The position numbers and the translations under genes are program-made. From contig CAZKSG010000001.1 in assembly GCA_964555335.1 (NCBI GenBank), positions 7,336 to 71,335 of the forward strand: 64,000 nucleotides of DNA. The letters run 5' to 3'. The stretch is from an uncultured Anaerolinea sp. (lineage in GTDB: Bacteria; Chloroflexota; Anaerolineae; Anaerolineales; Villigracilaceae). Position 1 is the first letter of the stretch; every line of letters starts with the position of its first letter. The notes under the pieces are model-generated. The model saw nothing but the letters and a program-made list of their open reading frames with translations, made no database searches and was not told the DNA's origin. This document shows positions 11,701-49,214 of this stretch, one piece after another.

Positions 11701-11702
11701 TG

Positions 11703-28232: not shown

Positions 28233-30887
28233 ATGAAGGCAAAGCGCCGAAGTTTTCTGGCAAGTGCAGGATTTGCCGCCGCAATCATCGCTGCATTGAT
28301 GATCGCGGCCTCTGCCCTCGCGAGCGGTGGGTCCATGTATAGCCCGGGCGCTTTGAATGCACAGCCCGGCAATTTGCTGGGTGGCGTCTCTTCGCATGCT
28401 GATATTGCAGGAAACTGCAAAGCCTGTCATGCCGCCCCGTGGGAAGCAGACACCATGGATGACCGTTGTTCGACGTGCCACGTGAATGTTGCAGCGCAAA
28501 TGCTCGTCCCTGCATCGGTCCATGGCCGGATGATGCAGATCGATCCGCAGGCAAAGTGTCGGACCTGTCACCCGGAGCATAAAGGACCGAATGCGCTTCT
28601 TACGGTTCTGGAAGGGTGGCGATTCCCTCACGATGTGGCGCGTTTCAAATTAAACAGTCACCAACGAACGGCTGAGAAGGAACCGTTCCTGTGCGCTGAT
28701 TGTCATGGAGAGGATGTCACCCAGTTCGATGAACTGACCTGTCGTAAATGTCACATCCTCAAAGATATGGCGTTCATGGTAGAGCATCAGGTAATGTTTG
28801 GGGAGAACTGTCTCGAATGTCATGATGGAGTGGAACGCTTCGGGCACGATTTCGATCACAACCAATTCGCTTTCCAATTAACAGGCAAACATGCTGACGT
28901 GAAATGTTCCCAGTGCCATGTTATGGCAAGGACACTTTCTGCTTTGCAGTTGGCCAAACAGGATTGTCTCTCCTGCCATGCAAACGATGATCCACATCAT
29001 GGAAGTCTGGGACCCGATTGTGCTGCATGCCATACCCCCGATGGATGGAGTCCATCAACCTTTGACCACAATCGTTCCATTTTTAAATTGAACGGTGCCC
29101 ACGTACAAGTGGCCTGCGAGAAGTGCCATATGAATGCTATGTTTAAAGGCACGCCCCTGGATTGTTTCTCGTGTCATCAACAAAACGATGCACACATGGG
29201 CCAGTTGGGCAGAACTTGCGAGAAATGCCATGCTACTGCCGCGTGGCTTCCGGCCCAGTTCGATCACAACACGACGGGTTTCGTGCTGACAGGTTCGCAT
29301 GTTAATGTAGCATGCAAGTCCTGTCATATCAACGGTATATACAAAAATACGCCCAGGGATTGTTTCTCCTGTCACGCTGCAAGAGACGTTCACAATGGAC
29401 AATATGGGAAAAATTGTGGAGTATGTCATCAGACTACACAGTGGCTGCGCGGAAAGTTCGATCACAACTTCACTGCATTTCCACTTGTTGGCAAACATGT
29501 AAGTGTAAGTTGCATGACCTGTCACCGGAACGACATTTTTAAAGGCACTCCCAAGAATTGTTTTTCCTGCCACGCGAAGGACGATCACCATAACGGACAA
29601 TTTGGGAGGAATTGTGCGATCTGCCATGCGCCCAATGACTGGAAGAATATCATCTTCGATCACAATACCAGCGCCTTCCCGCTGACGGGCAAACATGCCC
29701 AGTTGAATTGCACACAGTGTCATACATCGGCACAATTCAAAATCCCAACGGAATGTTCATCCTGTCACACTGAACCGGCCTTCCATGTAGGTGCATTTGG
29801 GACGAATTGCGCGCAGTGTCATACCACCTCTTCCTGGCCAGGTGCAACGTTCCTCAGACCCCATCCTGTAGCGCTCGGTCAAAACTTTTTGGATCATCAT
29901 GGAGCCACCTGCAAGACCTGTCATACGATCACAGTGCATGATTTTACATGTCTGGCTTGTCATGAAACCAATCCGCTTCCACCAGGGGGCGGTGCTGAAC
30001 CGACAAGTACACCAGTTTCAACACAGACTCCAATTGCAGCTGAACCCGCTGTGTTGACATCCATTACACCTTCCACGATCCACGTAGGCGATACAAGCCA
30101 GTTGACCATAAGCTTGAATAACGTACCTGCCCAGGGCTATGCAGGCACTGAATTTACCTGCACGTACGATCCCACCCTTGTGGATGTCAGTGACATCAGC
30201 ATTGGAAATCTCTTTGGTCCAGACACGGTTTCGGGACTATTCGGTCCCGAAAATGGGAGTTTTATTCTCGCTCTCGCAGGAAGCAATGGCAGAAAAGCCT
30301 CAGGCAGTGGCACTGCATTCACATTCGATGCGAAGGGATTAAGGGCCGGGCAGACCAACATCGAATGTAAAGCCCGCGTATCGGAAGGACAGAACGCCCT
30401 TCAAAGTATAGGCTCCCTGCCGTCAACCATGACCATTGATGATGTATCTCCTACATCCACAGCCACGTCAGCCTCCGTTTCCATCACTGGGCAGGTCCTT
30501 GCCAGCAAACCGGCGACGATTCAGTTGTACAGCCCGGATAACTCCATTGTCGCAACGAGTACGACCAACCCAGATGGAACTTTTCTCATCGCCGCCCCAA
30601 TTGGGACGTATACGATCACAGCTTCAGTAGAAGGATTCCTTGGCGCGCAAGGTTCCGTTACGGCCGCCAGTGGCGGCACGATCTCGATGCCGGTTGTCAG
30701 TTTGATCGCCGGTGACATTGATGGCAATGGGGTCATCGATCAAATGGACGGACTCACCATTCGCATGAACTACAACAATACAACTCCCACTGCGGCAGAT
30801 CTGAACAACGATGGCGTAATCAATGTTCTCGATCTGGGAATTCTTGCGGAGAATTATGGCAGATCAGGCGCGCTGCTTTGGCCATAA
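28233..30887 (+). CDS. Multiheme c-type cytochrome (23 CxxCH) fused to cohesin-like, CarboxypepD_reg-like and dockerin modules
   Basis: I counted 23 CxxCH motifs in the translation. N-terminal signal/anchor KRRSFLASAGFAAAIIAALMIAASALA. Five tandem 66-aa triheme units. C-terminal VPAQGYAGTEFTCTYDPTLVDVSDISIGNLFG (cohesin-like). GDIDGNGVIDQMD...DLNNDGVINVLD (duplicated dockerin Ca-binding loops). Confidence 0.85.
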   Translation: MKAKRRSFLASAGFAAAIIAALMIAASALASGGSMYSPGALNAQPGNLLGGVSSHADIAGNCKACHAAPWEADTMDDRCSTCHVNVAAQMLVPASVHGRMMQIDPQAKCRTCHPEHKGPNALLTVLEGWRFPHDVARFKLNSHQRTAEKEPFLCADCHGEDVTQFDELTCRKCHILKDMAFMVEHQVMFGENCLECHDGVERFGHDFDHNQFAFQLTGKHADVKCSQCHVMARTLSALQLAKQDCLSCHANDDPHHGSLGPDCAACHTPDGWSPSTFDHNRSIFKLNGAHVQVACEKCHMNAMFKGTPLDCFSCHQQNDAHMGQLGRTCEKCHATAAWLPAQFDHNTTGFVLTGSHVNVACKSCHINGIYKNTPRDCFSCHAARDVHNGQYGKNCGVCHQTTQWLRGKFDHNFTAFPLVGKHVSVSCMTCHRNDIFKGTPKNCFSCHAKDDHHNGQFGRNCAICHAPNDWKNIIFDHNTSAFPLTGKHAQLNCTQCHTSAQFKIPTECSSCHTEPAFHVGAFGTNCAQCHTTSSWPGATFLRPHPVALGQNFLDHHGATCKTCHTITVHDFTCLACHETNPLPPGGGAEPTSTPVSTQTPIAAEPAVLTSITPSTIHVGDTSQLTISLNNVPAQGYAGTEFTCTYDPTLVDVSDISIGNLFGPDTVSGLFGPENGSFILALAGSNGRKASGSGTAFTFDAKGLRAGQTNIECKARVSEGQNALQSIGSLPSTMTIDDVSPTSTATSASVSITGQVLASKPATIQLYSPDNSIVATSTTNPDGTFLIAAPIGTYTITASVEGFLGAQGSVTAASGGTISMPVVSLIAGDIDGNGVIDQMDGLTIRMNYNNTTPTAADLNNDGVINVLDLGILAENYGRSGALLWP
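28851..29852 (+). repeat. Tandem array of triheme modules (210 nt, then 4 x 198 nt period)
   Basis: The in-frame FDHN anchors at 28851, 29061, 29259, 29457 and 29655 are each followed by G.H....C..CH ... FKGTP.(D/N)CFSCH ... D.H.GQ.G..C..CH. Confidence 0.85.
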
Positions 30888-31011
30888 TCACTGTCGAAAA
30901 GGAGGTACCAATAAAAAGATGTGTAACAGTAAAGCTAATGATTAGGTTTGAGAAACCCACCAGGTGAGAAGTATGGACTTTAGAAAAATGTGTCAGCCGA
31001 AGGAGAATAGA

Positions 31012-32316
31012 ATGAAGAAGAAGAAAAGACAATACAGAGAACTGAATCGAATTATGATGATCGTTTCTGGAGCGATTATCCTGCTCGCAGTCATGATCGC
31101 TTCATCCAGTCCGCAATCAGGCAGCGCGGCGCCAGGCGATTTGAGCAGCGCGATGGCCAAATATCCGAGCCTCTCCACCAGCAGCCTGAATACTTGCGAT
31201 CTCTGCCATACTGCCAGTATTCCCAGTTTGAACCCCTATGGTGCGGCGTATAAATCCAATGGTAGAAATACTGCCGCCTTTGGAGCGATCGAGAATATTG
31301 ATTCAGATGGTGACGGGTTTACCAACATCCAGGAGATCAATGCACTCACCTTCCCTGGAAATTCCGCGAGTAAACCGGCCGCTGCTCCAACTGCGACGAA
31401 CACACCGGCCCCCACAAATACCAGTGTTCCGAATCCAACAAACACGCCGATCTCAACGGTGGTGGCGCCATCTGCGACACCCACCGCTCCATCCAGTTTG
31501 GCGTCTGTAACGACGGGACTGAATCCATCGAGTGTTACGGTGGGCGGTTCTTCTACAGCTTCGGTCAGCCTGAGCAACGTCCCGGCCGGAGGGTATGCCA
31601 GCGTTGAGTTTACCTGTACCTATAACCCAACGATCGTGGAAGTATCCAACATTGTTGAAACTGGCCTTTTCGGAACCGACCCGGCCATGGTAATCAATGG
31701 TCCTCAAAACGGGAGTTTCATTGTCGCCATCGCAGGTAGTAAAGGAAATAGAGCATTGACAAGTGGTGCAGCCTTTTCGTTTTCCGCAAAAGGGTTGCAG
31801 ACGGGACAATCCACCATTGACTGTCAGGCCCGCGTCTCTACCGGGAACCTTGTTCTCGTCAGCATTCCTTCCACGCCAGCCAACCTTGTCGTTGGGTCCA
31901 CACAAGGTACGTTCTCTGGGCAGGTCCTGGCGGGTAAGCCAGTAACAGTCACGTTGTATGATGCTGGCAATGCAGTTGCAGGCTCTATTGTTGCAAATAC
32001 AGATGGAACCTTCAGCCTCTTGAGCAATGCCGGAGCATACACGGCGGTCGCTTCAGCGCCTGGCTACCTCAAAGCCCAGGGTTCCATCAGCATCACAAGC
32101 GGCAATACAACGACCCTGCAAACCATCAGCCTGATCGCAGGTGACATCGATGGGAATGGTGTGATCGATCAGTTTGACGCCCTGACGATCGGTATTAACT
32201 ACAATGGAACAGTGCCGAGTGAGGCAGATCTGAGCAACGATGGCACCATCAACGTGCTGGATCTGGAAATTCTGGCTCTCAACTATCGCAAATCTGGTCC
32301 GTTGGTTTGGAACTAA
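31012..32316 (+). CDS. Secreted/anchored CxxCH protein with EF-hand-like loop plus cohesin-like, CarboxypepD_reg-like and dockerin modules
   Basis: The ATG at 31012 follows AAGGAG. N-terminal anchor, a single CDLCH, DSDGDGFTNIQE, a PT linker, GYASVEFTCTYNPTIVEVSNIVETGLFG (cohesin-like), and GDIDGNGVIDQFD...DLSNDGTINVLD (dockerin). Confidence 0.8.
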   Translation: MKKKKRQYRELNRIMMIVSGAIILLAVMIASSSPQSGSAAPGDLSSAMAKYPSLSTSSLNTCDLCHTASIPSLNPYGAAYKSNGRNTAAFGAIENIDSDGDGFTNIQEINALTFPGNSASKPAAAPTATNTPAPTNTSVPNPTNTPISTVVAPSATPTAPSSLASVTTGLNPSSVTVGGSSTASVSLSNVPAGGYASVEFTCTYNPTIVEVSNIVETGLFGTDPAMVINGPQNGSFIVAIAGSKGNRALTSGAAFSFSAKGLQTGQSTIDCQARVSTGNLVLVSIPSTPANLVVGSTQGTFSGQVLAGKPVTVTLYDAGNAVAGSIVANTDGTFSLLSNAGAYTAVASAPGYLKAQGSISITSGNTTTLQTISLIAGDIDGNGVIDQFDALTIGINYNGTVPSEADLSNDGTINVLDLEILALNYRKSGPLVWN

Positions 32317-32370
32317 AACATACTTGCAGTACGGGCGCATTTTTCAATGCGCCCGTACACTGGAGTTGCC

Positions 32371-33024
32371 ATGAAAAAGATTTCCGCCCTTATTTTTGTC
32401 CTCATTATTTCTCTCATATCTGTTTTTGCTGTGAATGCCCAGTCTGCCGAGACGATCTGGATCCAGCCGGTTACCACTACTTACAAAACCATGGAAACAG
32501 TTACGGTTACTCTTAACGGCAATGCAACTACACCCATTCAGGGGTTCACGGCTCAGATCCGATATGACCCTGCATGTCTGACACCCATTAATGGAACGAG
32601 CCCCATCCCTGGCATGAATGGACTGGCTGTCCCTCAAACATCGGGTCTGGCGGATGTGTCATTTGCAAGTACCACACCTCAAATGGCAAATGGTGTGTTA
32701 GCCGAGGTGCGCTTTACGGCTCTTAAGGGTTGTCAGACGAATCTCGCCATTGAGACAGCGGCCCTTGTCGTTCGTAATGAATCGGGATTTGCCGTCCCGA
32801 TCCCCGGGGTGACCATCGATCAGAATGCTGTTGTGTTGAATATCGACAATGCAGTGGGAAACGCTCAACCGGAAGCAACGGGAGAATCTGTGTTGCCCCT
32901 TAGACCAGCTGGTATTCCCGAGCGAAAGCCTTTCGATTGGATAGTATATGTTTCATTGGCTCTGGCCGGCGTTCTTATCGTATCGATCGTGGGTCTATTT
33001 AAATTTATGAGCCCATCGAGTTGA
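32371..33024 (+). CDS. Signal peptide - single cohesin-like domain - C-terminal TM anchor protein
   Basis: MKKISALIFVLIISLISVFAVNAQS signal, then IQGFTAQIRYDPACLTP...ANGVLAEVRFTALKGC (cohesin-like), then the C-terminal helix WIVYVSLALAGVLIVSIVGLF. No dockerin. Confidence 0.75.
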   Translation: MKKISALIFVLIISLISVFAVNAQSAETIWIQPVTTTYKTMETVTVTLNGNATTPIQGFTAQIRYDPACLTPINGTSPIPGMNGLAVPQTSGLADVSFASTTPQMANGVLAEVRFTALKGCQTNLAIETAALVVRNESGFAVPIPGVTIDQNAVVLNIDNAVGNAQPEATGESVLPLRPAGIPERKPFDWIVYVSLALAGVLIVSIVGLFKFMSPSS

Positions 33025-35319: not shown

Positions 35320-36180
35320 ATGACTAATCTGAAACGTTCGTTTTTCTGGGCTGCATCGTACATCGGGGTTATCTTTATTCTTGGGCAGGCTGATTATATG
35401 GGCCGGCCGATCATCAATTTTGCATCCTACTTTTATCTGGCGGTGATCGTCGCGACGCCGCTGACTCTTTTCTTTCCATACGTCTCAAGAGTTTCGGTGT
35501 ATGTTCCAATGTCGGTTTGGGCGGGCGTTTACATGATTTTGCTCCAAATACTGGATAGGAGACGTTCAACAGAAAATATAGAGTTTTCCGTCATCGTATT
35601 GGAATTTGTCTTGTTGGAGATCGGAGTGTGGCTTGCCTATCAATTAGCCATGCAGATCAGTCACGCCGAATCTCTTATGGATGCTCTGGCTTTGAGTGCA
35701 TTCCCAAACCGGACCCATACCATAGAGGCGGAGGAACAGCGGATCAAAGTTGAGATTACTCGCAGCCGTCGGTACCATCGTCCATTGAGTTTGGTGATCA
35801 TGGAATCAGAGACCGAAGGTGAAAAAAGCACCAGGGCAATGCTGAAAAGTATCCAACATGACCTCTCAAGCCGCTTCGCATCTGCCCGGGTCGGACAGAT
35901 CATCGATGATCGTATCCGCCAGACTGATTTGCTGCTGAGAGATCATAGGGGAAGGTTCATCATCGTTTGCCCTGAAACCGACCTTTCGAATGCGACATTA
36001 CTCGCCAAAAGGATTTCACAGTCAGTAAAGGAAAAAATCGATCTTGATGTGTATTGGGGAGTGGCGGCATTCCCGGAAGATGCACTTACATTTGAAGATC
36101 TGTTGCACATGGCTCGCGAGCGTTTAATTCGTTTTACTCCGCTGCCTGACGAGAGCGTTACCGCATATCATCCCAACTAA
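35320..36180 (+). CDS. Membrane protein with degenerate GGDEF domain (I-site retained)
   Basis: About 4 N-terminal TM segments. In the C-terminal domain the canonical RxxD-xxx-R-x-GGDEF reads RQTD-LLL-R-D-HRGRF. Confidence 0.7.
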   Translation: MTNLKRSFFWAASYIGVIFILGQADYMGRPIINFASYFYLAVIVATPLTLFFPYVSRVSVYVPMSVWAGVYMILLQILDRRRSTENIEFSVIVLEFVLLEIGVWLAYQLAMQISHAESLMDALALSAFPNRTHTIEAEEQRIKVEITRSRRYHRPLSLVIMESETEGEKSTRAMLKSIQHDLSSRFASARVGQIIDDRIRQTDLLLRDHRGRFIIVCPETDLSNATLLAKRISQSVKEKIDLDVYWGVAAFPEDALTFEDLLHMARERLIRFTPLPDESVTAYHPN

Positions 36181-36191
36181 AAAGGTACAGC

Positions 36192-36872
36192 ATGAGTACA
36201 TTGCATGTGGCATCTTATACTGAAGACGATTGGATCAGGAAATTCGATCCCCGAAAACGCATTTTGACCGGAAAGGCATACCTGCTGGTAAAACGACTAT
36301 TTGACTTGTCTCTTGTGTTGTTTACGCTTCCCCTTTGGTTGCCTCTTAATGGGGTGATTGCCCTGGTAGTCCGCCTTACATCTCCTGGTGCTCCCGTCAT
36401 ATTCAAGCAACTCCGTACCGGAAAAAGCGGGCGCCGTTTTCATATGTATAAATTTCGTACGATGGTGCCAAATGCTGAAGAGTTGAAACAAAAATATGCG
36501 CACTTGAATGAACTTCAGTGGCCGGATTTTAAAATCACCAATGACCCGCGGATAACACCCATAGGACGATTTTTACGCAAGACCAGTCTGGATGAAATCC
36601 CGCAGTTGTTTAATGTGCTGCGCGGTGAGATGAGCCTTGTAGGACCTCGTCCCACGTCATTTGGTCCCGAAACATATAAGCTTTGGCATACGCATCGACT
36701 TGATGTAATGCCCGGGCTGACCGGATTATGGCAAATTGTAGGCCGAGCCCAATTGGAACTGGATGACCGTCTTCGACTGGACATTGCCTATATCGAACGT
36801 GCGAGTCTGTGGCTGGATATCAACATACTATTCCGAACCGTTATGGCCGTCTTTGAACAACGTGGTGTTTGA
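36192..36872 (+). CDS. Polyprenyl-phosphate sugar-1-phosphate transferase (bacterial sugar transferase, initiating PGT)
   Basis: KR.FD, single reentrant helix, F.M.KFRTM, DE.PQL.NVL.G.MS.VGPRP and PG.TGLWQ. Confidence 0.9.
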   Translation: MSTLHVASYTEDDWIRKFDPRKRILTGKAYLLVKRLFDLSLVLFTLPLWLPLNGVIALVVRLTSPGAPVIFKQLRTGKSGRRFHMYKFRTMVPNAEELKQKYAHLNELQWPDFKITNDPRITPIGRFLRKTSLDEIPQLFNVLRGEMSLVGPRPTSFGPETYKLWHTHRLDVMPGLTGLWQIVGRAQLELDDRLRLDIAYIERASLWLDINILFRTVMAVFEQRGV

Positions 36873-36910
36873 AACAGATTGCACTACATAAATCAAACCA
36901 AGGAAATACC

Positions 36911-38047
36911 ATGGAACTAAAGCTCTATTTCAAAATGTTAAGGACAGGCTGGTGGCTGATTTTGCTGACAGGCATGATTGCCCTTGCTGTTTCTTTGATC
37001 ATGTCATATACAGCTGTGCCCCTTTATATGGCCTCCGCGCGTTTCATCATCAGTCCGTCGCCATCCTTGACCAGCGGCGGGGATGTAGTGCGCAGCCTCG
37101 ATACGCTGGATCGTCGTTCCGTAGTGGCAACGTACGCAGAGATTATGAACAGTAACCGGGTTATTTCCGGGGCATCCGAATCCATAAATCTTGACCCTCT
37201 TGCCTTGACCAAGAATTATGAGATTCAGGCCGTGGTCCTGCCGGATTCAAGCGTCTTGGAATTGAATATCTCTGGACCGAATCCTCAAGTTGCTGCCGAT
37301 CTTGCAAATGCAGTTGGATATCAAACGATAAACTATACTCGTAACCTGAATTTGGTATACGACCTTAATTTTCTTGATACCGCGCTGCCCAATACAGTTC
37401 CATTCAGTCCCGAACCGCTGCGTGATGGCGCGGTAGCACTGGTAGTGGGAATGGCTGTAGGCGCTGTATTATCCATTTTGAGCGAACAAATCCGCATCCC
37501 GATTGAAGCGTATCGTCAACGTTTGCGCATTGATAGCGCAACAGGAATCTACAATGCCAGTTACTTTTCCCGTTTGTTGACAGAGGAGCTGGGACGAAAT
37601 CCCGACGATGCTTTGTCTATGGCCATCGTGGAATTAAGTGGACTTTCTGATTATCTGGAAACGCTCCCTCCTGCCGGGTTGCAATCCCTGCTCGTAAAAG
37701 TCACCCAAATTTTGCGCAGAGAATTGCGCGGTAACGATAGTATTGCGCGTTGGAACGATGTTAGCTTTGCAGTAATGTTGCCTGCCACCGATGGACCCGC
37801 ATCCAGCAGGACCTTTAACCGAATTTATCATGCTCTTCTCCGGGCAATTGATCTTTCTGCCTATGGTGTAAGTGTGAACTTAGATCCCCATATTGGAGGC
37901 GCAATTTATAGTAATAATCTTACTGCGCAGGAATTATTGGAGAGGGCACAGGTTTCCCTTGAACAGGCCCGGCGGGATAGCACAAGGCCCACCTATGTTT
38001 GGGAAATGAAGAGTCCATTTTGGGTCCAACCCGAAAAGGGAGAATAG
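36911..38047 (+). CDS. Wzz-type polysaccharide co-polymerase fused to a degenerate GGDEF domain (I-site retained)
   Basis: Two TM segments flank an extracytoplasmic Wzz-like region (Y...R.WW.I......A...S........Y.A...). The cytoplasmic tail DSATGIYNASYF...RGND-SIA-R-W-NDVSF aligns with D.LTGL.NR...RxxD-xxx-R-x-GGDEF. Confidence 0.7.
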   Translation: MELKLYFKMLRTGWWLILLTGMIALAVSLIMSYTAVPLYMASARFIISPSPSLTSGGDVVRSLDTLDRRSVVATYAEIMNSNRVISGASESINLDPLALTKNYEIQAVVLPDSSVLELNISGPNPQVAADLANAVGYQTINYTRNLNLVYDLNFLDTALPNTVPFSPEPLRDGAVALVVGMAVGAVLSILSEQIRIPIEAYRQRLRIDSATGIYNASYFSRLLTEELGRNPDDALSMAIVELSGLSDYLETLPPAGLQSLLVKVTQILRRELRGNDSIARWNDVSFAVMLPATDGPASSRTFNRIYHALLRAIDLSAYGVSVNLDPHIGGAIYSNNLTAQELLERAQVSLEQARRDSTRPTYVWEMKSPFWVQPEKGE

Positions 38048-38060: not shown

Positions 38061-39560
38061 ATGAAACTGGCTCCTTTTATCTCATCTCCAATATATCGGT
38101 TTTTTCTATCAAGAGACAACGCGTTATCGGGCATATTTCTTGCGGCCGCGATTATCTTGGGATGTGTTGTCGCGGTAATAGGCAAACAAGTTGGGTGGGT
38201 GGGCTTGGCTGCTGCTCCCGCCCTTTTGTTTGTGATGATGGTATTGATCCAGCCTGAAATTGGTTTGGTGGCATTTGTCTTTATTGTCGTTATCCAATTA
38301 ACTCCGGTAATCAATAATAACTATCCTGGGATACCCTCGCCTGCGTTTCTTTTGCTGGGATTATTGGTGTTTATGATCCTTTGGCGAATGGTTGTATACG
38401 GTGATCGTTCCATGGGATGGAAACGTGCCAGTGTCATATTTGTGATCATTGTTTTTTGGCTTTTGTCTGTTCTTGTTGCAGAAGATTTTGGGCTCGCTTT
38501 TGATAAATTTCGCAAGTTTGCCGAAAATGCTCTCCTTGTATTTGTAGTCCTGTTCTTTGTCCAAAGACCAATGTCCCTTCGCAACGTAATCTGGACTTTG
38601 TTGGCGGCGGGAATTTTCATGGCTACCATTAGCATTATTCAGAATTTGACATCCACCTATGACAATAATTATTGGGGATTTGGTACCTGGGAGAGTTCAT
38701 CCGTTGACGGAGTAAGCAATCATAGGCTGGCGGGACCGTTCGGAAATCCCAACGCATATGCCCAGGTGCTGGTGATGTTGGTGCCTCTGGCATTGGATCG
38801 CCTTTGGCATGAAAAGGACCCTCGGTTTCGCTTGTTAGCAGTGTGGGCCTTTGGGGCTTGTATACTGGCCGTGTTCCTGACCTATTCGAGGAATGGGTTT
38901 GTTACATTGTTATTCACTCTTGGATTTTTGTTCGTTATGCGTCGCCCAGGTGTGTTGCCGTTAATGCTTTCAATGATCCTGATGCTTGTACTGTTTCAGG
39001 TTTTACCCGCCTCGTATACTGATCGTATTACCACCCTTTTTCAATTTTCATCTTCCAATTCATTACAACAGGTTTCCGACGAGTCATTTCGTGGGCGTTT
39101 GAGCGAGAACATAGCTGCCTGGAGGATGTTCCAGGATCATCCCTTGTTGGGGGTGGGGTTGGATAACTTCCAAGTTAATTACCAGAATTATTCGCGCCAA
39201 ATTGGGCTTGACCCGCGGAGGGTTGAACGTACTCCGGCAAGTTTTTATCTTGAATTGCTTGCAGAGCAGGGATTGATAGGTACCACGATTTTCATTTCGT
39301 TTTTAGTGATGGTCTTTTGGACTCTATGGAAATCCCGGCTTCGGTTTCAATCGATAGGTATGGTGGATGAAGCGTATATGGCATTAGCCTTTATGTCGGG
39401 ATTGGCCGGATATATGGTGTTTTATGTTTCGAAAAACAGTTCTTATTCCAATGTCTTTTGGCTGTTACTTGGAATCGCCCTTTCAATAGGACAAATTGCT
39501 GAAAGCAGTGTTGGCTCATTCATGCAGAGATTGAACCGTCCCTTTAAGGAGAAGCAATGA
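38061..39560 (+). CDS. O-antigen ligase/polymerase family (Wzy-like) membrane protein
   Basis: At least 10 TM segments with a large loop and a YSRNG-containing segment typical of the Wzy_C/O-antigen ligase domain. Confidence 0.75.
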   Translation: MKLAPFISSPIYRFFLSRDNALSGIFLAAAIILGCVVAVIGKQVGWVGLAAAPALLFVMMVLIQPEIGLVAFVFIVVIQLTPVINNNYPGIPSPAFLLLGLLVFMILWRMVVYGDRSMGWKRASVIFVIIVFWLLSVLVAEDFGLAFDKFRKFAENALLVFVVLFFVQRPMSLRNVIWTLLAAGIFMATISIIQNLTSTYDNNYWGFGTWESSSVDGVSNHRLAGPFGNPNAYAQVLVMLVPLALDRLWHEKDPRFRLLAVWAFGACILAVFLTYSRNGFVTLLFTLGFLFVMRRPGVLPLMLSMILMLVLFQVLPASYTDRITTLFQFSSSNSLQQVSDESFRGRLSENIAAWRMFQDHPLLGVGLDNFQVNYQNYSRQIGLDPRRVERTPASFYLELLAEQGLIGTTIFISFLVMVFWTLWKSRLRFQSIGMVDEAYMALAFMSGLAGYMVFYVSKNSSYSNVFWLLLGIALSIGQIAESSVGSFMQRLNRPFKEKQ

Positions 39561-41041
39561 ACTCTGCAGATGAACGACCGGAATTTGGCGTTGTCGCGAT
39601 CCGGGGCACGGCATGGAGATATGCATCTTATTTTGGCGGCAAATTCCTGGTGTTTCTCAGCACAATTGTTTTAGCTCGTTTGCTGACAAAAGATGATTTT
39701 GGGTTGGTTGGATATGCACTAACCACGATTGCGTTTTTAGACGTTGCCAGCGATCTGGGGGTTGCTGAAGCGGTGGTGTATCACAAAGAGGATAAAGTTA
39801 TTTATTCAACAGCCTTTTGGATAAGTCTGGCTATCGGTATTGTTTTGTTCGGCTTGTCCTGGGTGTTGTCCCCATTGTTGGCTGTTTACTTTCGTGACGA
39901 GCGTGTTGTTGAGATCAACCGTTTGATGGCACTTACCTTCCCTTTTACTGCATTGGGGAGTACGCACGAGGCGATTCTTCGCAAGAATTTATCCTTCGAT
40001 CGTGCTGCCGTTCCTGTATTTTTACGTGCGGTAACAAAAGGGGTGGTGTCGGTTGTTTTGGCGTTTATGGGATTTGGGGCCTGGAGCTTGGTATGGGGAC
40101 AGGTGAGCGGTCCGCTCATTTCTTCCATTGTATTATGGGTGATCACGCCGTGGAAGCCTACCATTGATTTCGATCTGAGCAGGGCGTCATCGCTTCTGCG
40201 GTATGGCATGAAAAACATTGGCTCTGACTTTTTATCCATGATCCTGCTCAACCTGGACTATTGGTTGGTTGGGCGCTATCTTGGCGCCGTGGCATTGGGA
40301 GTTTATACCCTTTCGTATCGTATGCCGGAATTGTTGATCCTGCAGTTTGCGCGGATCGTAAGCCAGGTTGTTTTTCCCATCTATACCAAGATGCGCAACA
40401 TCCCTGATGGACTTGCGAACGGCTTTCGCAAGGCAACGGCTTATGTTTCATTGGTTACAGTTCCATTGGGTTTGGGGTTGGCTCTCCTCGCCCGACCGTT
40501 TACCATCGTCTTTTTGACCGAAAAGTGGATCGATGCCGTCCCCGTCATTCAGGCGATTGCCCTTTATTCTTTGTTCCTTTCATTAATGCATAACACCAGT
40601 AGCGTGTATAAAGCGCAGGGGAATTTTAAAGTGATGATGTCAATCAGCATCGTTCGTTTGATGATTTTGTTCCCTGCTTTATGGTGGGCAACAACAGTTG
40701 CAGATTCGATCATTGCAGTAGGGTGGATGCATGTATGTGTTGCACTCATTTCATTGATCATCAGTTTGACAGTTGCGTCCCGTATATTGCGATCATCGAT
40801 TTCTGGCTTGTTTGTTTCGCTTTGGCCTTCGATCCTGGCTGGGGGTGTCATGGCGGCCTTTGTAGTTATCGTATTAAGACTGTCTGTTGACTTGCCTTCC
40901 ATCGTTCAACTGCTTCTGGCTGTTCCTGTAGGTGCATTGGCGTACGGTGCCATGTTGTGGCTGGTGTCGCGCGAGGTTGTGTTGGAAGCGGTTCGAAAAT
41001 TGCAATCTGCAATTTCCCGGCAAAAAGCAGAGACTGTGTAG
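39557..41041 (+). CDS. Wzx-type polysaccharide flippase (MOP superfamily)
   Basis: About 14 TM segments and the N-terminal pattern G..W.......K...F......LARLL.P.DFG typical of polysaccharide biosynthesis proteins. It overlaps the upstream gene by 4 nt. Confidence 0.8.
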   Translation: MNSADERPEFGVVAIRGTAWRYASYFGGKFLVFLSTIVLARLLTKDDFGLVGYALTTIAFLDVASDLGVAEAVVYHKEDKVIYSTAFWISLAIGIVLFGLSWVLSPLLAVYFRDERVVEINRLMALTFPFTALGSTHEAILRKNLSFDRAAVPVFLRAVTKGVVSVVLAFMGFGAWSLVWGQVSGPLISSIVLWVITPWKPTIDFDLSRASSLLRYGMKNIGSDFLSMILLNLDYWLVGRYLGAVALGVYTLSYRMPELLILQFARIVSQVVFPIYTKMRNIPDGLANGFRKATAYVSLVTVPLGLGLALLARPFTIVFLTEKWIDAVPVIQAIALYSLFLSLMHNTSSVYKAQGNFKVMMSISIVRLMILFPALWWATTVADSIIAVGWMHVCVALISLIISLTVASRILRSSISGLFVSLWPSILAGGVMAAFVVIVLRLSVDLPSIVQLLLAVPVGALAYGAMLWLVSREVVLEAVRKLQSAISRQKAETV

Positions 41042-41048
41042 TGCTTCC

Positions 41049-42212
41049 ATGATGAATGGCGTGGTGATGATCATCAATGATTTCGCTCCTGTTTCGGGGG
41101 GAACAGAAAAACAGGCGGAACGTCTGGCTGGCTACCTTGCCGCTCATGACCGACAGGTCTGGGTTATCACACGGTGGCGACCGGGGCTGATGCACGAAGA
41201 AGAAATGAACGGTTTCCATGTCCTGAGGGCGGGTCGTGGTCCGGGAAAATTTAAGACAGTGACATTTGTGTTGGGTTGCTTGTGGCACTTATGGCGCCTT
41301 CGGGACTCCTATGAGATCATCCACGCTCATTTGCTTTTTGGCCCGGCATTTTCTGCAGCGCTTGCCGGACGTATTCTTGGAAAGCGTGTTATTGCCAAGC
41401 TTGGGGCCAGTGGCATGTATGGAGAGATCCATATTGCTCAACGCTCGTCACGTGGGCGGCTGACGCTTGCGCTGGTTCGACGTTGGCTGAATGCATTGGT
41501 TGTGTTGGATGACGATATGAAGCAGGAGGCGATGTCGGCCGGTTTCTCTGCAGATCGTGTGATCCAAATGGATAATGGCATCGATGCGATGTCTTTTAAT
41601 TCAACCCGATCCCGTGAAGATGAAAAAACTGCATTGGGGATGACGGATAAGACTGTTGTTCTCTTTGTGGGACGCCTGGTTCAGCAAAAGTCGCTTCCAA
41701 CCCTTTTGCAGGCGATAAAGCTGGCGGTGCAATTCTCGCCGAAACTTCATCTCATGCTGGTAGGAAGCGGGGCAGAACGAGAATCTCTTGAAGCGTTGAC
41801 GCGTTCGCTGGGTATTCAAGAGTTCGTTACTTTTGCAGGCAATCAGGCGGATGTAAGGCCCTTTTTAAGGGCAGCAGACATATTTGTCCTTCCTTCTGAA
41901 AAGGAAGGCATGTCTAATGCGTTGCTTGAAGGAATGGCATCTGGACTCGCCTGTCTCTCTACGCCTGTAGGTGCCAGCCCAAAACTGCTGGATCACGGTG
42001 CGAGTGGGTTGCTCTTGCCGGTGGGCGATATTTCTGCATGGAGTAATGCCCTTGTTGACTTGGGGAACAGTCCGAATCGCCGCGCTGAGCTGGGACAGGC
42101 GGCTCGTCAACAAGTGATGAAAGTGTATGATTTTTCAGTTGTCGGTGCCCGTTATCAAATGCTTTATGAAAGTTTGACCAGACATACCGTAAGCCAGACG
42201 GAGACTGCCTGA
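41049..42212 (+). CDS. Glycosyltransferase family 4 (GT-B)
   Basis: GG.E and the C-terminal PS..EG.SNALLEGMASGL (E-x7-E region). The start was trimmed to the ATG at 41049. Confidence 0.85.
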   Translation: MMNGVVMIINDFAPVSGGTEKQAERLAGYLAAHDRQVWVITRWRPGLMHEEEMNGFHVLRAGRGPGKFKTVTFVLGCLWHLWRLRDSYEIIHAHLLFGPAFSAALAGRILGKRVIAKLGASGMYGEIHIAQRSSRGRLTLALVRRWLNALVVLDDDMKQEAMSAGFSADRVIQMDNGIDAMSFNSTRSREDEKTALGMTDKTVVLFVGRLVQQKSLPTLLQAIKLAVQFSPKLHLMLVGSGAERESLEALTRSLGIQEFVTFAGNQADVRPFLRAADIFVLPSEKEGMSNALLEGMASGLACLSTPVGASPKLLDHGASGLLLPVGDISAWSNALVDLGNSPNRRAELGQAARQQVMKVYDFSVVGARYQMLYESLTRHTVSQTETA

Positions 42213-42214
42213 TA

Positions 42215-43369
42215 ATGACCAGCGCTCGCGTTCTTCACCTTATTGACGGACTTAACGTTGGCGGGGCAGAAATGTTGCTGCGTGAATTATCGGTTGGCCT
42301 GGTTCGCCGCGGTTTTCAGGTCAACATCGGGTATAGCACTCCAGGTCCATTGGTTCAGGAGTTGAGTACGCTTGGACTGCCCCTCAGCCGCCTGCCACGG
42401 TTGATGCGAATTGATCCAATCCTTTTTGGTGGAATGGTCCAACTCATTCGAAAGATTTCGCCTCAGGTGGTGCACACGCATCTTTTCAAGAGCGATTTTC
42501 ACGGACGCCTGGCAGCTCGTGTAGCAGGTGTGCCGGTTGTCGTTTCAACTCTCCATAGCATGGATCGTTGGGCGAAAGCACGTCCGCTTGGAAGAATGTA
42601 CGGGTGGACCGCCCGTTTTGCAGATCGCTTGATTGCTGTTTCAGAAGATGTTCAGAATTTTCATGTTACTTATACTGGCGTGCCAAAAGATAAATTTGTG
42701 ACCATCGAAAATGGTGTAGATCTTCAACGATTTGTGGGACAGGAAACGGCAGGTCATGCTGTCCGCAGGGAATTTGGATTGGATGCTTCGTCGCTGGTCT
42801 TTGGGATTGTGGGACGACTCACTCCTCCGAAAGGTCATGACACTTTCATAAAAGCAGCCGCATTGATTCGACAAAAAACGCCGCAAGCCCGTTTCCTGGT
42901 GATTGGCGATGGACCCTTACGTGAGGGATTGGAAGCGCAAGCGCGCGAACTGGGGCTTGGCTCGGCAATAATATTCACCGGGTTACGCAAAGATATTCCG
43001 GCCATGCTTGCAGCGTTGGATGTGCTGGTCTTTTCGTCATTATGGGAGGGATTACCCGTGGCGCTTCTGGAAGGGATGGCAGCTGCCAGGCCCGTCGTGG
43101 CTACCACAGTTGGTGGAATCCCTGATGTGGTGTTGCCAGATAAGACCGCCCTTCTTGTCCCTCCTTCCGATGCCGATGCATTGGCTTTGGCCTGTCTGAA
43201 GGCGGCCTCTGACACTGAGATGCGGCTTTCAATGGGGCGGTTGGGATTGGAACGTGTACGCGCACAGTACAGCATGGATAAAATGATTGACCGAACGTCC
43301 GATCTGTACGCAAAGTTATTGAGCGAACATGGGTTGGGACATTTGATCCCATCACAAGTGACAAGTTGA
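42215..43369 (+). CDS. Glycosyltransferase family 4 (GT-B)
   Basis: GGAE and the S.WEGLPVALLEGMAA..PVVAT motif. Confidence 0.85.
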   Translation: MTSARVLHLIDGLNVGGAEMLLRELSVGLVRRGFQVNIGYSTPGPLVQELSTLGLPLSRLPRLMRIDPILFGGMVQLIRKISPQVVHTHLFKSDFHGRLAARVAGVPVVVSTLHSMDRWAKARPLGRMYGWTARFADRLIAVSEDVQNFHVTYTGVPKDKFVTIENGVDLQRFVGQETAGHAVRREFGLDASSLVFGIVGRLTPPKGHDTFIKAAALIRQKTPQARFLVIGDGPLREGLEAQARELGLGSAIIFTGLRKDIPAMLAALDVLVFSSLWEGLPVALLEGMAAARPVVATTVGGIPDVVLPDKTALLVPPSDADALALACLKAASDTEMRLSMGRLGLERVRAQYSMDKMIDRTSDLYAKLLSEHGLGHLIPSQVTS

Positions 43370-43373: not shown

Positions 43374-44534
43374 ATGGATCGACCGATACGTTTACTATTG
43401 GTAACAAAGTCCACCGGTGGTGTGGCAGAGTACATCCGTTGGCTGGTGAATGGGCTTCACCGGGAAAGGTTCTGTCCCACTGTTGTCTGTTTATCGGAGA
43501 ATGGACCTGAGTTTGCAGAAGAACTCAAGCAAGCATATGGGATCAAGACAGTCAGCTATGCCATGAACCGTTATAAAGTGGATGTGGTTTCAGATACCCG
43601 CGTGGGATTTCAGTTGGCGAAACTGATGCGTTCTCATGACTTTGACCTGGTGCATGCACATGCATCTAAACCGGGGTTTCTTGTGCGTATCGCCGCGTTG
43701 GGCACAGGCTTGCCTGTTTTATATTCACCTCATTGCTTTGCATTTCATGCAGGTGCCGGGCGAACGACGATATGGATTACTTCACTCCTTGAACGGCTGG
43801 CTGCATTTTTTACAACGGGTTTCATGACCGTATCTGAAGGAGAAAGGGAATTGGCACGCGATTATCACGTGGGAAGGCATGAACAATTCACCGTGATTCA
43901 CACAGGTATCGATCCCCTGCCGTATCGTCAGCCTGTGGATACCGCTCAGTTGAAGATTTCCCTGGGCATACCCGTTTCGGCGCCGGTGATTGGTTCAGTG
44001 GGCAGGCTTAGTGAGCAAAAGTCCCCTCAGGATTTTGTTCGAGTGGCAGAGGCGGTTCATCGGTCCAGGCCGGACGCGCATTTTGTCTGGGTGGGGAACG
44101 GTCCTCTCGAACCGGAAGTCCGCACGTTAAGCACATCACTCCAGTTGGATTCTGTCATCCATTGGTTGGGGCAGCGTTCCGATGTTTCCCAACTGCTTCA
44201 TATCTTTGATTGTTTTGTCCTGATGTCTCGTTGGGAAGGATTCCCGCTTGTTGTTTTGGAGGCAATGGCGGCGAATGTCCCCGTTGTGGCAACCGATATC
44301 CCCGGCACCCGTGACGCGATTCAACACGGAGTTAACGGATGGCTTGCCGCCCCTGGGGATACTGATTCTTTCACCCGCTTTCTTCTTGACCTTTTGACAG
44401 ATCCGGCAAAAGCAGATTCGTTTCGCTCTGTCAGTCGCGCACGTATAGATAATGAATTTACGCGGGAGCACATGATCGTTTCGATAGAGAAATTGTATGA
44501 ACGGGTAGTCTCCGAGGATGCTTCACGGAAATGA
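43374..44534 (+). CDS. Glycosyltransferase family 4 (GT-B)
   Basis: GG and the MSRWEGFPLVVLEAMAANVPVVATD motif. Confidence 0.85.
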   Translation: MDRPIRLLLVTKSTGGVAEYIRWLVNGLHRERFCPTVVCLSENGPEFAEELKQAYGIKTVSYAMNRYKVDVVSDTRVGFQLAKLMRSHDFDLVHAHASKPGFLVRIAALGTGLPVLYSPHCFAFHAGAGRTTIWITSLLERLAAFFTTGFMTVSEGERELARDYHVGRHEQFTVIHTGIDPLPYRQPVDTAQLKISLGIPVSAPVIGSVGRLSEQKSPQDFVRVAEAVHRSRPDAHFVWVGNGPLEPEVRTLSTSLQLDSVIHWLGQRSDVSQLLHIFDCFVLMSRWEGFPLVVLEAMAANVPVVATDIPGTRDAIQHGVNGWLAAPGDTDSFTRFLLDLLTDPAKADSFRSVSRARIDNEFTREHMIVSIEKLYERVVSEDASRK

Positions 44535-45616
44535 GCAATACGACCAACCAGATGGTGATCACCGAGCTTGCCCATGCCATCTCTCCTCGCATCGAGGAGT
44601 GGTATGGCGATGGTGCAGTATTGGATGTGGATGCTTTTGCGTTGCGTACCTATCCATATTCTTTCTTCGTCGAATTTCCCGTCAAGACATCTTCCGGAAC
44701 GCAGATGCTCCTTGCCAAGATTCATCGTAAGCCCATGGTGCAAACATTGGCAGATGCGTTGGCTGTAGAGAAATTGCATCAGCTTGCGCGCAATGAGTAT
44801 GATGTTTCGCAAAAGATCTGGCATGCATTCGAGGAAGAAGGTACTGGCGATTGCGAGGTCGTTCGTTATCTCGATTACTGCAAAGAGTGGAACGCTTTGC
44901 TCATGCGGCAGGTAAAAGGCAGGATGCTTAAGAAATATCTTTTGCATCCATCCATCGCCTTGCGAAGCGCGGCCTCCATGGAACGATTGCAGGCATTCCT
45001 GATATTGGCAGCACGGTGGTTGCAAATTTTCCATCGTCGCGTCTCGGGGTTACAGGTTATTCCCTTCCCGAAGGAAGATGTTTCTGTATTGATCGAAGAT
45101 GTTTTGGGAAAGTTGCATACCCATTCCGATGGGCAAGTGGATATAGATCCTTATCGCATTGCTCTGAACCGGGCTTTGGAAGACATTGGTCTGCTTTCTG
45201 TACCAGTTGGACTTCTTCATGCTGATTTTCAATTCTCAAATATACTTGTGACATCGGAAGGCAAAGTCTGTGTCTTGGATTATTCGCTTACTCATTATGG
45301 ATCTACATATTTTGATCTGGCAACACTATTGATCGATCCGGAGACCCGCAAGGCGCAAATTCTGACGAACGGAAGGTTTGTGTCATCTGATTACCTTCGA
45401 GCGTGTCAGCGGTCCATTCTTGACACTTATTTTGGCAACGAACCTTATCATCAGAACGTATTGCATTTCTATTGCGCGCTTGCCATCCTCAACAAATGGA
45501 GTGCAGATGAAAAGGAGTTCTCCAATAGTCGGCAAACAATACCAACACTTCTATTTTCTCGAGTTACCCGGCGTTATTATGTTGAATTATTGTTGCGTTA
45601 TCTTCCATTTCAATAA
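44531..45616 (+). CDS. Phosphotransferase (APH / choline kinase-like) family protein
   Basis: LLHADFQFSNILV (Brenner-like HxDxxxxN) and VLDYS (DxD/DFG equivalent). It overlaps the upstream gene by 4 nt. Confidence 0.65.
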   Translation: MSNTTNQMVITELAHAISPRIEEWYGDGAVLDVDAFALRTYPYSFFVEFPVKTSSGTQMLLAKIHRKPMVQTLADALAVEKLHQLARNEYDVSQKIWHAFEEEGTGDCEVVRYLDYCKEWNALLMRQVKGRMLKKYLLHPSIALRSAASMERLQAFLILAARWLQIFHRRVSGLQVIPFPKEDVSVLIEDVLGKLHTHSDGQVDIDPYRIALNRALEDIGLLSVPVGLLHADFQFSNILVTSEGKVCVLDYSLTHYGSTYFDLATLLIDPETRKAQILTNGRFVSSDYLRACQRSILDTYFGNEPYHQNVLHFYCALAILNKWSADEKEFSNSRQTIPTLLFSRVTRRYYVELLLRYLPFQ

Positions 45617-47969: not shown

Positions 47970-48010
47970 AATGAGAAAAGCACCTGGATATTCCAGGTGC
48001 TTTTCTCATT
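47970..48010. terminator. Bidirectional terminator hairpin
   Basis: aatgagaaaagcacctgga / tccaggtgcttttctcatt, a 19-bp stem with a 3-nt loop. It overlaps the stop codon of the minus-strand gene. Confidence 0.7.
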
Positions 48011-49214
48011 TAATGTTGATTTCAACTTTATGTGTTTCAGGGTTAACCATGACACTCCCATGAGCAAAATCTCTCCTCCATGCAGTGCCGTCGCGGTAAC
48101 GTAGCCCAAGAGGCGTACCAAGGTTGATTCTATAGTCATCATACATCCAGACATCCCGGTATTTATTGCTATTGGCATACCGAAAAAAGGCATTTCCCTG
48201 GTTGATGAGCAAATAAGATGCAAATGCGAATTTTTGCAGGGACGTATCTTCCTGGGCGCCTTGAGCGACTAGAATAATGGATTTTCCCATTTTCTGTGTT
48301 TGTTCGGCAAGTTCCATTTGTTTTTCCCACGTTTCTGCCGGACGGTATCCATTTGGCCAATCAATTGCCCAGCCTTCGTGCATAACACCATCCAGATACA
48401 TGATTTGGCTTGTCCAGACCGCATCGTCTCTACGGGAAACCAGGTTTGCAAAAAGGAGTTTCTTTTCAGGTTGAAAATAGTTCTCGTATAGATATTGTAG
48501 GAAGCCCTGGACTGCAATTTGGAGGCTGGCATCATCAGGATATGCGGCAGGTAGATAACCGCTTTTTTCCTGAAAGGCCAGCGTCACCGGGACGTTGTCG
48601 AGAAACACACCATTCCAGTTTGGATCTGCCTGGGTTTGTTTAATACGATCAAGGAAGTAGGAACGCCAGCCGGGATTCCCTGGATCCATAAGGTATAAGT
48701 TATTATCATCATCTTGTTTAACGATACGTCTGCCTTGCGTATCAAGCAGAAACCAATCGGGATGCTGTTCGCTGATCAGACAGAAATCTCCGGGCATATA
48801 AGCGATTTGATTTGCATCCGGGCTGGCGGTACACGAACCCGGGTCTTGGATCGCTTCGAATAGAAGATACTGAAGGATGGGACCTCGCGCACCCATGGCA
48901 ATCATCATGTCTCGTTCTTCTTCTTTTCGATGATGCAGGATGAACAAATCAAACCACTGTAATACATTAAGAAGATCCTCGTCGCGAGGGATGTTTGTGA
49001 ACCAGGCCAGGCGGACAAGAGGAAACGGCCCGGCATTGGATGTAGGTGTGATGAGCCCGGGTTGTAAGTTCAATGGCGTTGGCGTGAGAACAGGTTCAAC
49101 TGTTGTTTGATCTGAAGTATTTGTTTCTTGAAATTTACCCAGTAGGAGTAAATAGGCAATAATTGACAGTACCATAAACGAGAGAATTGATTTCACAATG
49201 ACTTGACGTTTCAC
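48006..49214 (-). CDS. Putative secreted/anchored polysaccharide hydrolase (TIM-barrel, GH114/GHL-like)
   Basis: N-terminal anchor, LMDPGNPGWRSYF and WNGVFLDNV blocks reminiscent of GH114/GHL15-type enzymes. The assignment is weak. Confidence 0.4.
   Translation of the reverse strand: MKRQVIVKSILSFMVLSIIAYLLLLGKFQETNTSDQTTVEPVLTPTPLNLQPGLITPTSNAGPFPLVRLAWFTNIPRDEDLLNVLQWFDLFILHHRKEEERDMMIAMGARGPILQYLLFEAIQDPGSCTASPDANQIAYMPGDFCLISEQHPDWFLLDTQGRRIVKQDDDNNLYLMDPGNPGWRSYFLDRIKQTQADPNWNGVFLDNVPVTLAFQEKSGYLPAAYPDDASLQIAVQGFLQYLYENYFQPEKKLLFANLVSRRDDAVWTSQIMYLDGVMHEGWAIDWPNGYRPAETWEKQMELAEQTQKMGKSIILVAQGAQEDTSLQKFAFASYLLINQGNAFFRYANSNKYRDVWMYDDYRINLGTPLGLRYRDGTAWRRDFAHGSVMVNPETHKVEINIK

Follow-up and report, generated by a model that had tools for sequence, protein, structure and literature searches.

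In the Pel system of Pseudomonas, the inner-membrane protein PelD has a degenerate GGDEF domain that binds cyclic di-GMP (c-di-GMP) via an RxxD motif and a downstream arginine and switches on the polysaccharide. Here, we describe two proteins with degenerate GGDEF domains at positions 35320-38047 of a 64-kb window, i.e., the whole stretch of DNA analysed, taken from contig CAZKSG010000001.1 of an uncultured Anaerolineales bacterium (Chloroflexota). One is a 286-aa membrane protein, here called the receptor; the other is a 378-aa fusion of a Wzz-type polysaccharide co-polymerase (PCP) with a GGDEF domain. Degenerate-GGDEF receptors for c-di-GMP are well known from PelD, PssE, and YdaK, to which the 286-aa protein adds another in an unusual setting. 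The fusion joins a sensing module and a co-polymerase, each known in itself, in an undescribed combination and pathway context, which is conserved across a bacterial class. PelD, which is mentioned in PMC8892547, belongs to a synthase-dependent system and carries a GAF domain between its transmembrane (TM) region and the GGDEF domain, whereas the window proteins show no GAF domain in Pfam.

By build and motif positions, with PssE and YdaK taken from published descriptions rather than from their sequences, the receptor resembles PssE of Listeria and YdaK of B. subtilis. It has the same length of ~285 aa, multi-pass N-terminal TM helices followed by a C-terminal degenerate GGDEF domain (GGDEF*), and an RxxD located five residues before the dead motif (motif at 208 in PssE; R202/D205 in YdaK; R200/D203 and motif at 209 in the receptor). 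It is also encoded by the first gene of an exopolysaccharide (EPS) operon which, like those of PssE and YdaK, includes a BcsB-like protein and a glycoside hydrolase. PssE binds c-di-GMP at a site of this kind with a Kd of 0.79 µM and two ligands per protein, and its operon includes a BcsB orthologue (PMC4125290), while R202 and D205 of YdaK are required for EPS production (PMC5422440). PssE and YdaK, however, serve machines with a glycosyltransferase family 2 (GT2) synthase (PssC and YdaM, respectively), whereas the 286-aa receptor pairs with a small phosphoglycosyl transferase (PGT) of a Wzx/Wzy pathway, and no GT2 partner is reported among the Pfam matches of the locus.

Reviews describe synthase-dependent systems as controlled by c-di-GMP and Wzy-dependent PCP-2 systems as controlled by tyrosine phosphorylation (PMC12220298, PMC8892547). 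PCP-2 rings open and close through a phosphorylation cycle, and the state of the regulatory domain of Wzc controls ring assembly and polymer output (review PMC12220298). The fusion resembles the PCP-2b proteins of CapA/CapB and CpsC/CpsD in its two TM helices, small alpha/beta domain, matches to Wzz and TIGR01006, GNVR-like motif, and Wzy and Wzx neighbours. It differs from CapA and CpsC in that a GGDEF* domain of ~170 aa replaces the kinase-activating tail; neither a bacterial tyrosine kinase (BY-kinase) nor a phosphatase was found in the locus, and a BY-kinase was not found in 78 related loci either. With the PCP-2a protein Wzc, the fusion shares a cytoplasmic regulatory domain fused after TM2, but this domain has a nucleotide-cyclase fold and a putative second-messenger pocket instead of a P-loop kinase with a tyrosine cluster, and we only infer that it controls oligomerisation.

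Two further systems offer partial parallels. BcsA-PilZ/BcsB and other c-di-GMP-activated synthases likewise combine c-di-GMP sensing, here predicted, within a membrane machine with an anchored partner of the BcsB family, which in 2014 was viewed as exclusively associated with cellulose-type synthases (PMC4125290). In contrast to these, the window contains no processive GT2 synthase and no PilZ, and its polymer is built on a lipid carrier by PGT, GT4 glycosyltransferases, Wzx, and Wzy. In Myxococcus, EpsW activates EpsZ, thus providing an example of PGT activation by a small regulator and of post-translational control of a Wzx/Wzy pathway at the PGT step (PMC12802240). EpsW, a phosphorylated receiver, targets a large monotopic PGT, whereas the receptor and the small PGT are linked by gene pairing only.

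Inactive GGDEF domains with conserved I-sites

Three plus-strand genes fill 35320-38047 with tight spacing. Their products and the residues of the inhibitory site (I-site) and of the former catalytic site (A-site) are as follows, with the supporting evidence in brackets:

35320-36180, plus strand: receptor, 286 aa, four N-terminal TM helices and degenerate GGDEF domain at ~35710-36129 (Pfam, AlphaFold2 (AF2), hydropathy, Foldseek)
35917-35928, plus strand: receptor I-site RxxD, R200-Q-T-D203 (translation, alignment, conservation)
35944-35958, plus strand: receptor degenerate A-site HRGRF replacing GG(D/E)EF (translation, orthologue variability)
36010-36012, plus strand: receptor R231, third primary I-site residue, 28 residues after the aspartate (PleD R390 equivalent)
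36192-36872, plus strand: small PGT (Bac_transf), 226 aa, initiating enzyme (Pfam PF02397 215 bits; TIGR03025 268 bits)
36911-38047, plus strand: Wzz(PCP-2b-like)-GGDEF fusion, 378 aa (Pfam Wzz and GGDEF, TIGR01006, AF2, Foldseek)
37727-37738, plus strand: fusion I-site RxxD, R273-G-N-D276 (translation, alignment, conservation)
37754-37768, plus strand: fusion degenerate A-site NDVSF (translation, orthologue variability)
37820-37822, plus strand: fusion R304, 28 residues after the aspartate, equivalent to PleD R390 (alignment, conservation)

In the family scan proposed by an earlier note on this DNA, both proteins score as GGDEF above the Pfam cut-off (PF00990, 23.8 bits), the receptor with 28.2 bits and the fusion with 45.7 bits, and the fusion is also recognised as Wzz (39 bits, cut-off 25.5). 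The same note had read the motif blocks RQTD-LLL-R-D-HRGRF in the receptor and RGND-SIA-R-W-NDVSF in the fusion. Both occur as exact strings, the former at 35917-35958, which translates to RQTDLLLRDHRGRF, and the latter at 37727-37768, which translates to RGNDSIARWNDVSF.

HMMER alignments to chains of the Protein Data Bank (PDB) place these blocks on known sites. The receptor RQTD aligns to the I-site of c-di-GMP-bound 3IGN, HRGRF to GGDEF, and R231 to the arginine of the 3IGN segment 'CERIR', while VIMESE falls on the metal-binding (I/F)D(S/I)D strand. Likewise, the fusion RGND aligns to the RxxD I-sites of TpbB, 6D9M (a Geobacter GGDEF), and SadC with NDVSF on GGDEF, while R304 lines up with 6D9M 'AERIR' and with receptor R231. 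VELSGL of the fusion falls on IDSDRF, with E and S replacing Asp, in agreement with the earlier proposal that the metal-binding D(I)D is lost in the fusion (ELSGLS). The two window domains also align mutually (R200=R273, D203=D276, R207=R280, F213=F286, and R231=R304). BLASTP against the GGDEF domain of PleD equates R200/D203/R231 of the receptor with PleD R359/D362/R390 and puts R231 on the arginine of 'AERIR'. The fusion GGDEF domain gave no BLASTP alignment to the PleD domain; its residues were mapped to PleD via the HMMER alignments to PDB chains and via the 286-aa protein.

The I-site triads (R-x-x-D plus an arginine 28 residues later) of both proteins are under strong purifying selection. 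R200, D203, and R231 of the receptor and R273, D276, and R304 of the fusion are invariant in 121 close homologues each. Among 44 syntenic receptor orthologues from representative genomes, with identity down to 25%, each triad residue is kept in 43. Among 76 fusion orthologues from genome loci, R273 and D276 are kept in all and R304 in 75. The former A-site, by comparison, drifts: the pentapeptide varies across the 44 receptor orthologues (EKNQF, DAGRF, KEDEI, etc.), in which the metal-binding Asp position is occupied by E, Q, H, or K, and takes ~40 forms among the 76 fusion orthologues, none of which is GG(D/E)EF. In 104 fusion-family representatives (50% identity clusters), conservation in the GGDEF domain is highest at D276 (91%), and R273 ranks seventh among the domain's columns (82%), compared with a mean top-residue frequency of 39%; GG at the former A-site is found in 2/104. 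Hence, chance does not account for the I-site register: in hundreds of homologues, conservation within the domain peaks at the motif residues.

Taken together, both proteins carry the sequence pattern of a degenerate-GGDEF I-site receptor like PelD, PssE, YdaK, or PopA, i.e., RxxD five residues before a dead motif and a downstream arginine equivalent to PleD R390 and PelD R402, and both lack the GG(D/E)EF and metal-binding Asp of an active diguanylate cyclase. The alignments and the conservation thus bear out what the earlier note had claimed for both domains, namely that the catalytic A-site is lost while the I-site Arg and Asp are kept with exact spacing. Both domains are almost certainly enzymatically inactive.

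One genome stands apart. In L069 (~7142-11068), and in no other genome, the receptor carries E, N, and H instead of the R, D, and R of its I-site; L069 is also the only genome whose fusion has lost R304 (to S). This joint loss hints that the two pockets serve one signal. In addition, the distant Wzz-GGDEF representatives P0304, P0337, and P0345 carry near-canonical motifs (GGDQF, AGDKF). Because some distant relatives keep such motifs, the comparison suggests that an active cyclase gave rise to the fusion and that degeneration came afterwards.

Architecture of the fusion and the receptor

A mechanical open reading frame (ORF) call starts the fusion at TTG 36869 and runs to 38047, overlapping the PGT stop codon. 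Because its homologues span 370-386 aa and begin with MEIKLYF or MELKLYF, the start is most likely ATG 36911, which would give a protein of 378 aa beginning with MELKLYF; residue numbers count from this ATG. In the AF2 model (predicted local distance difference test (pLDDT) score 83), TM1 (~residues 14-34, ~36950-37012) is followed by a small alpha/beta extracytoplasmic domain. TM2 (~37415-37492) starts at residue 169 and continues as one long helix to residue 206, leading to a cytoplasmic GGDEF-like domain (37529-38005) with the order beta-alpha-alpha-beta-beta-alpha-beta. Foldseek compares the model to solved GGDEF domains with TM-scores of 0.8-0.89.

The N-terminal part of the fusion belongs to the PCP-2b (CpsC/CapA) type, with a Wzz match, a small extracytoplasmic domain between two TM helices, and a GNVR-like motif in the family. 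It matches NCBIfam TIGR01006 (CpsC-family chain-length determinant) with 61 bits over model positions 2-197 of 226, a score far under the whole-protein cut-off of 296, which indicates homology but not equivalog membership. The alignment ends 29 model positions short, and the GGDEF-like domain begins there. From knowledge of CapA/CapB, we take this C-terminal end of TIGR01006 to be the cytoplasmic tail that activates the kinase. Because TIGR01006 aligns over 2-197/226, only the CpsC-type kinase-activating tail appears to be replaced by the GGDEF domain. A PDB sequence search with the Wzz half retrieved no solved PCP. Weak matches to GNVR ('G-rich domain on putative tyrosine kinase') occur at TM2 in 6/10 longer family members and also in L024; at 20-26 bits these matches in fusion relatives stay below the cut-off of 27.7, yet they fit a PCP-2 origin. 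The ten longer members that were checked (483-755 aa) consist of Wzz, GNVR-like, and GGDEF segments with an occasional E3_binding domain or transposase read-through, and no extra kinase or output domain was found in them.

The AF2 model of the receptor is of lower quality (pLDDT 58) and was used for secondary structure and a cautious fold search only. In it, four helices at the N-terminus precede a C-terminal domain whose secondary-structure elements follow the order of the fusion's GGDEF domain. Its TM-scores against solved GGDEF domains (Foldseek, 0.6-0.7) are weaker than those of the fusion but consistent with the same fold. The receptor has 1098 homologues at E<=0.001 in the protein collection, and the named ones are from Anaerolineales/Chloroflexi.

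A conserved Wzx/Wzy locus without a nearby tyrosine kinase

The two GGDEF proteins had been placed at the head of an EPS locus by the earlier note, and the gene order agrees. Upstream of the receptor gene lies a 620-bp gap and then a divergently transcribed amine oxidase; downstream, the PGT gene starts 11 bp past the receptor stop codon, and the Wzy, Wzx, and three GT4 genes follow tightly. The remaining genes of the locus are:

38061-39560, plus strand: Wzy-type polymerase/O-antigen-ligase family membrane protein (Pfam Wzy_C 87 bits; syntenic in most related loci)
39557-41041, plus strand: Wzx-type MOP flippase (Pfam Polysacc_synt_3 251 bits; NF007773 232 bits)
40932-42212, 42215-43369, and 43374-44534, plus strand: three GT4 glycosyltransferases (Pfam Glycos_transf_1/Glyco_transf_4), the first with its true start probably at ATG 41049
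44531-45616, plus strand: soluble APH/protein-kinase-like phosphotransferase (Pfam APH 33.5 bits; HxDxxxxN catalytic-loop motif)
45658-47952, plus strand: BcsB-like protein, 764 aa, with signal peptide and C-terminal membrane anchor (Pfam BcsB 145 bits, 598/606 model positions; topology)
48006-49214, minus strand: membrane-anchored GHL15 glycoside hydrolase with N-terminal TM helix (Pfam GHL15 110 bits)
49289-50701, plus strand: PMT_2 (GT-C) membrane glycosyltransferase at the locus edge (Pfam PMT_2 48 bits)

With an initiating PGT, Wzx, a Wzy-type polymerase, and glycosyltransferases in one place and in conserved synteny, this Anaerolineales (Chloroflexota) locus encodes polysaccharide assembly of the Wzx/Wzy-dependent type. 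It is not of the synthase-dependent (BcsAB-like) type: a BcsB-like protein is present, but no match to a GT2 synthase family was found among the Pfam matches of the locus ORFs, neither in the window nor in L024. The GHL15 hydrolase is possibly a polymer-trimming enzyme. PDB searches returned nothing useful for the BcsB-like protein and marginal hits only for the APH-like protein.

Within the 620-bp leader, a c-di-GMP riboswitch or other RNA element was considered and dismissed, as Rfam gave only chance-level eukaryotic RNA hits; in the whole window, Rfam returned nothing at gathering thresholds. A promoter and terminator scan of the locus gave counts equal to the shuffled expectation.

The fusion is a widespread family. 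A profile search of 1.84 billion representatives yielded 334 fusion-family clusters (50% identity) at E<=1e-30, and most of those listed are full-length Wzz+GGDEF proteins. In a scan of one genome per species of the Genome Taxonomy Database, the fusion occurs in 78 loci, nearly all in metagenome-assembled genomes (MAGs) of Anaerolineae/Anaerolineales, including Candidatus Villigracilis. The MAGs with related loci stem from activated sludge (Ca. Villigracilis), groundwater, fen, and sulfidic-cave habitats, and the source names of the family read 'diguanylate cyclase' or 'capsular polysaccharide biosynthesis protein'.

The fusion family was always found in Wzx/Wzy-type loci, which come in two arrangements. 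The dominant one is that of the window, with receptor, PGT, (GT4), fusion, Wzy, Wzx, GT4s, (APH-like), and BcsB-like genes. In the second, represented by L024, the fusion is followed by the BcsB-like gene, a different PGT (~40% identity), sugar-modifying enzymes, Wzy, and Wzx, and the 286-aa receptor is missing. Of 61 loci with enough upstream sequence, 40 have the receptor, and without exception the next gene in these 40 encodes a PGT of the same small type (63-85% identity). The fusion has a BcsB-like gene as its immediate neighbour in 20/78 loci and no more than 10 kb downstream in 49/58; the BcsB-like protein is part of the conserved core around the fusion. The APH-like gene occurs in a subset of related loci and is absent from most. 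PMT_2 also flanks the alternative locus type (L024 7891-9462). Because GHL15 and PMT_2 genes flank the locus, with PMT_2 also in L024, the polymer might stay bound to an acceptor (protein or wall) instead of being released.

The earlier note had further stated that the locus encodes no BY-kinase or phosphatase. Indeed, no large ORF scanned in the 64-kb window has a Pfam match to a P-loop BY-kinase, a PHP-type CpsB phosphatase, or a low-molecular-weight protein tyrosine phosphatase. Neither a scan for Walker A/A'/B motifs nor a tblastn probe revealed a BY-kinase in the window and the 78 loci (+/-10 kb; 1.36 Mb in total); the probe, a PtkA-like sequence of B. subtilis, was validated on CapB (1e-54) and Wzc (1e-33). 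Thus, the BY-kinase with Walker motifs and Tyr cluster and the phosphatase which characterise a kinase-coupled PCP-2 system were not found within the window and the 78 loci. A Hanks-type kinase is encoded 15 kb upstream.

Elsewhere in the window, the genes at 28233-33024 (plus strand) encode an 884-aa protein with multihaem cytochrome c7/c3 domains, cohesin, CarboxypepD_reg, and dockerin, then one with CarboxypepD_reg+dockerin (30964-32316), and last a cohesin protein that has a hydrophobic stretch at its C-terminus (32347-33024). Together, they resemble a surface cytochrome complex held together by cohesin-dockerin pairs. At 9518-14458 (minus strand), an Amidase_3 cell-wall amidase comes after four YkuD-type L,D-transpeptidase paralogues in tandem. 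Between a LacI regulator and two ABC permease genes, a 476-aa ORF (52150-53580, plus strand) has an N-terminal hydrophobic segment and no Pfam match, and may be a divergent solute-binding protein.

Predicted c-di-GMP control and its alternatives

Judging from the sequence comparisons, it is likely that both degenerate GGDEF domains bind c-di-GMP. With somewhat less assurance, we lean towards a composite reading in which two c-di-GMP receptors would gate the Wzx/Wzy pathway post-translationally, at initiation and at polymerisation. At initiation, the 286-aa protein would sense c-di-GMP and act on the small PGT encoded directly downstream. At polymerisation, c-di-GMP would bind to the GGDEF* domain at the cytoplasmic end of TM2 of the fusion, where the ligand is probably an intercalated c-di-GMP dimer able to bridge neighbouring domains. 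Binding would alter the oligomeric or conformational state of the co-polymerase and consequently change Wzy polymerisation and chain length, a switch that may be functionally analogous to the Wzc/CpsCD phosphorylation cycle. The BcsB-like anchored extracytoplasmic protein would be a conserved partner, probably handling the emerging polymer.

We propose only tentatively, and rather doubt than believe, that c-di-GMP binding to the fused tail truly replaces tyrosine phosphorylation in function; the idea is plausible because the GGDEF domain begins where the kinase-activating tail of the CpsC model would be. Rather unlikely, in our estimate, is the full picture of a hybrid EPS machine of Anaerolineae: a Wzx/Wzy pathway in which c-di-GMP on the fused I-site would replace the PCP-2 phosphorylation cycle and its dimers would bridge ring domains as the Tyr-cluster tails of Wzc do, combined with two recruited modules that to date belong to synthase-dependent systems, a PssE/YdaK-type receptor on the PGT and a BcsB-like subunit for polymer handling.

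Several observations weigh against c-di-GMP control of the locus. We infer both receptor targets, the PGT and the co-polymerase, from gene order only. The GGDEF score of the 286-aa protein is just above the Pfam cut-off, and its AF2 model is of low confidence. Of 104 representatives of the wider fusion family, 82 still have RxxD and 59 have R304, which 45 have lost; the two losses are not significantly correlated (Fisher p=0.14), and I-site use may not be universal across this family. No secondary (cross-linking) I-site arginine was identified. The APH/protein-kinase-like gene inside the locus makes phosphorylation of some kind possible. The 64-kb window contains no diguanylate cyclase or phosphodiesterase, and the 78 neighbourhoods yielded a single canonical GGDEF gene (L019). 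Further, all relatives are from MAGs, with cultured isolates accounting for 0/78 genomes.

Degenerate GGDEF domains are also known as protein-interaction modules, which raises the alternative that both domains bind no nucleotide and serve for dimerisation or as scaffolds, with the Arg and Asp being structural or part of a protein-protein interface. The long helix from TM2 to the domain, as in coiled-coil GGDEF dimers, and the loss of RxxD in 22/104 wider-family representatives fit this explanation. Yet the conserved residues are exactly the three c-di-GMP contacts of PleD-type I-sites, and they are top-conserved while the remaining surface drifts. Moreover, PssE and YdaK, which have the build of the receptor, depend on these residues, and the joint loss in L069 fits a shared ligand. 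We therefore regard a pure scaffold as unlikely. Less likely again, and in fact very improbable, is a pocket for another nucleotide, such as (p)ppGpp, GTP, pGpG, or another cyclic dinucleotide, which would make the signal other than c-di-GMP. PDB entries 9G85 and 9G86 describe, by their titles, PleD with ppGpp/pppGpp as well as c-di-GMP, and the A-site is too degraded for a judgement by sequence alone; however, both A-sites lack the residues for binding GTP and metal, the combination of R-x-x-D with R(+28) is the triad typical of c-di-GMP, and canonical GGDEF cyclases occur in the lineage (L019).

A continued tyrosine phosphorylation of the fusion, by a distant BY-kinase or by the APH-like kinase of the locus with the GGDEF domain as an add-on, we consider quite improbable. 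The kinase search covered 64 kb of the source genome and +/-10 kb of the relatives, and a protein-kinase-like gene does lie within the locus. On the other hand, a BY-kinase is near 0/78 orthologues, the APH-like gene is missing from most related loci, the longer family members add no kinase domain, and the GGDEF domain takes the place of the CpsC-type kinase-activating C-terminal tail. Finally, the automatic NCBI name 'diguanylate cyclase' would make one or both proteins active enzymes. The chance of this is next to nil: without GG(D/E)EF, the metal-binding Asp, and the conserved substrate-binding residues, the A-site of both proteins is dead and its pentapeptide hypervariable, and we reject this reading.

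Control by c-di-GMP thus remains our preferred interpretation. The NCBI label 'diguanylate cyclase' for the receptor and fusion families is a systematic mis-annotation, which is corrected here. In open-access papers and preprints, the literature covered, we found no Wzz/PCP-GGDEF fusion and no action of c-di-GMP on a PCP. A fusion of a PCP-2b co-polymerase with an I-site, located without a BY-kinase nearby and with a BcsB-like partner, bridges the synthase-dependent and the Wzx/Wzy export groups, and it is a concrete candidate for a system in which a second messenger directly controls Wzy polymerisation and chain length. If true, it would be the first case in which c-di-GMP directly and post-translationally switches Wzy-dependent polymerisation and chain length. 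For the Anaerolineae themselves, the matrix and sheath polysaccharides may shape flocs and granules.

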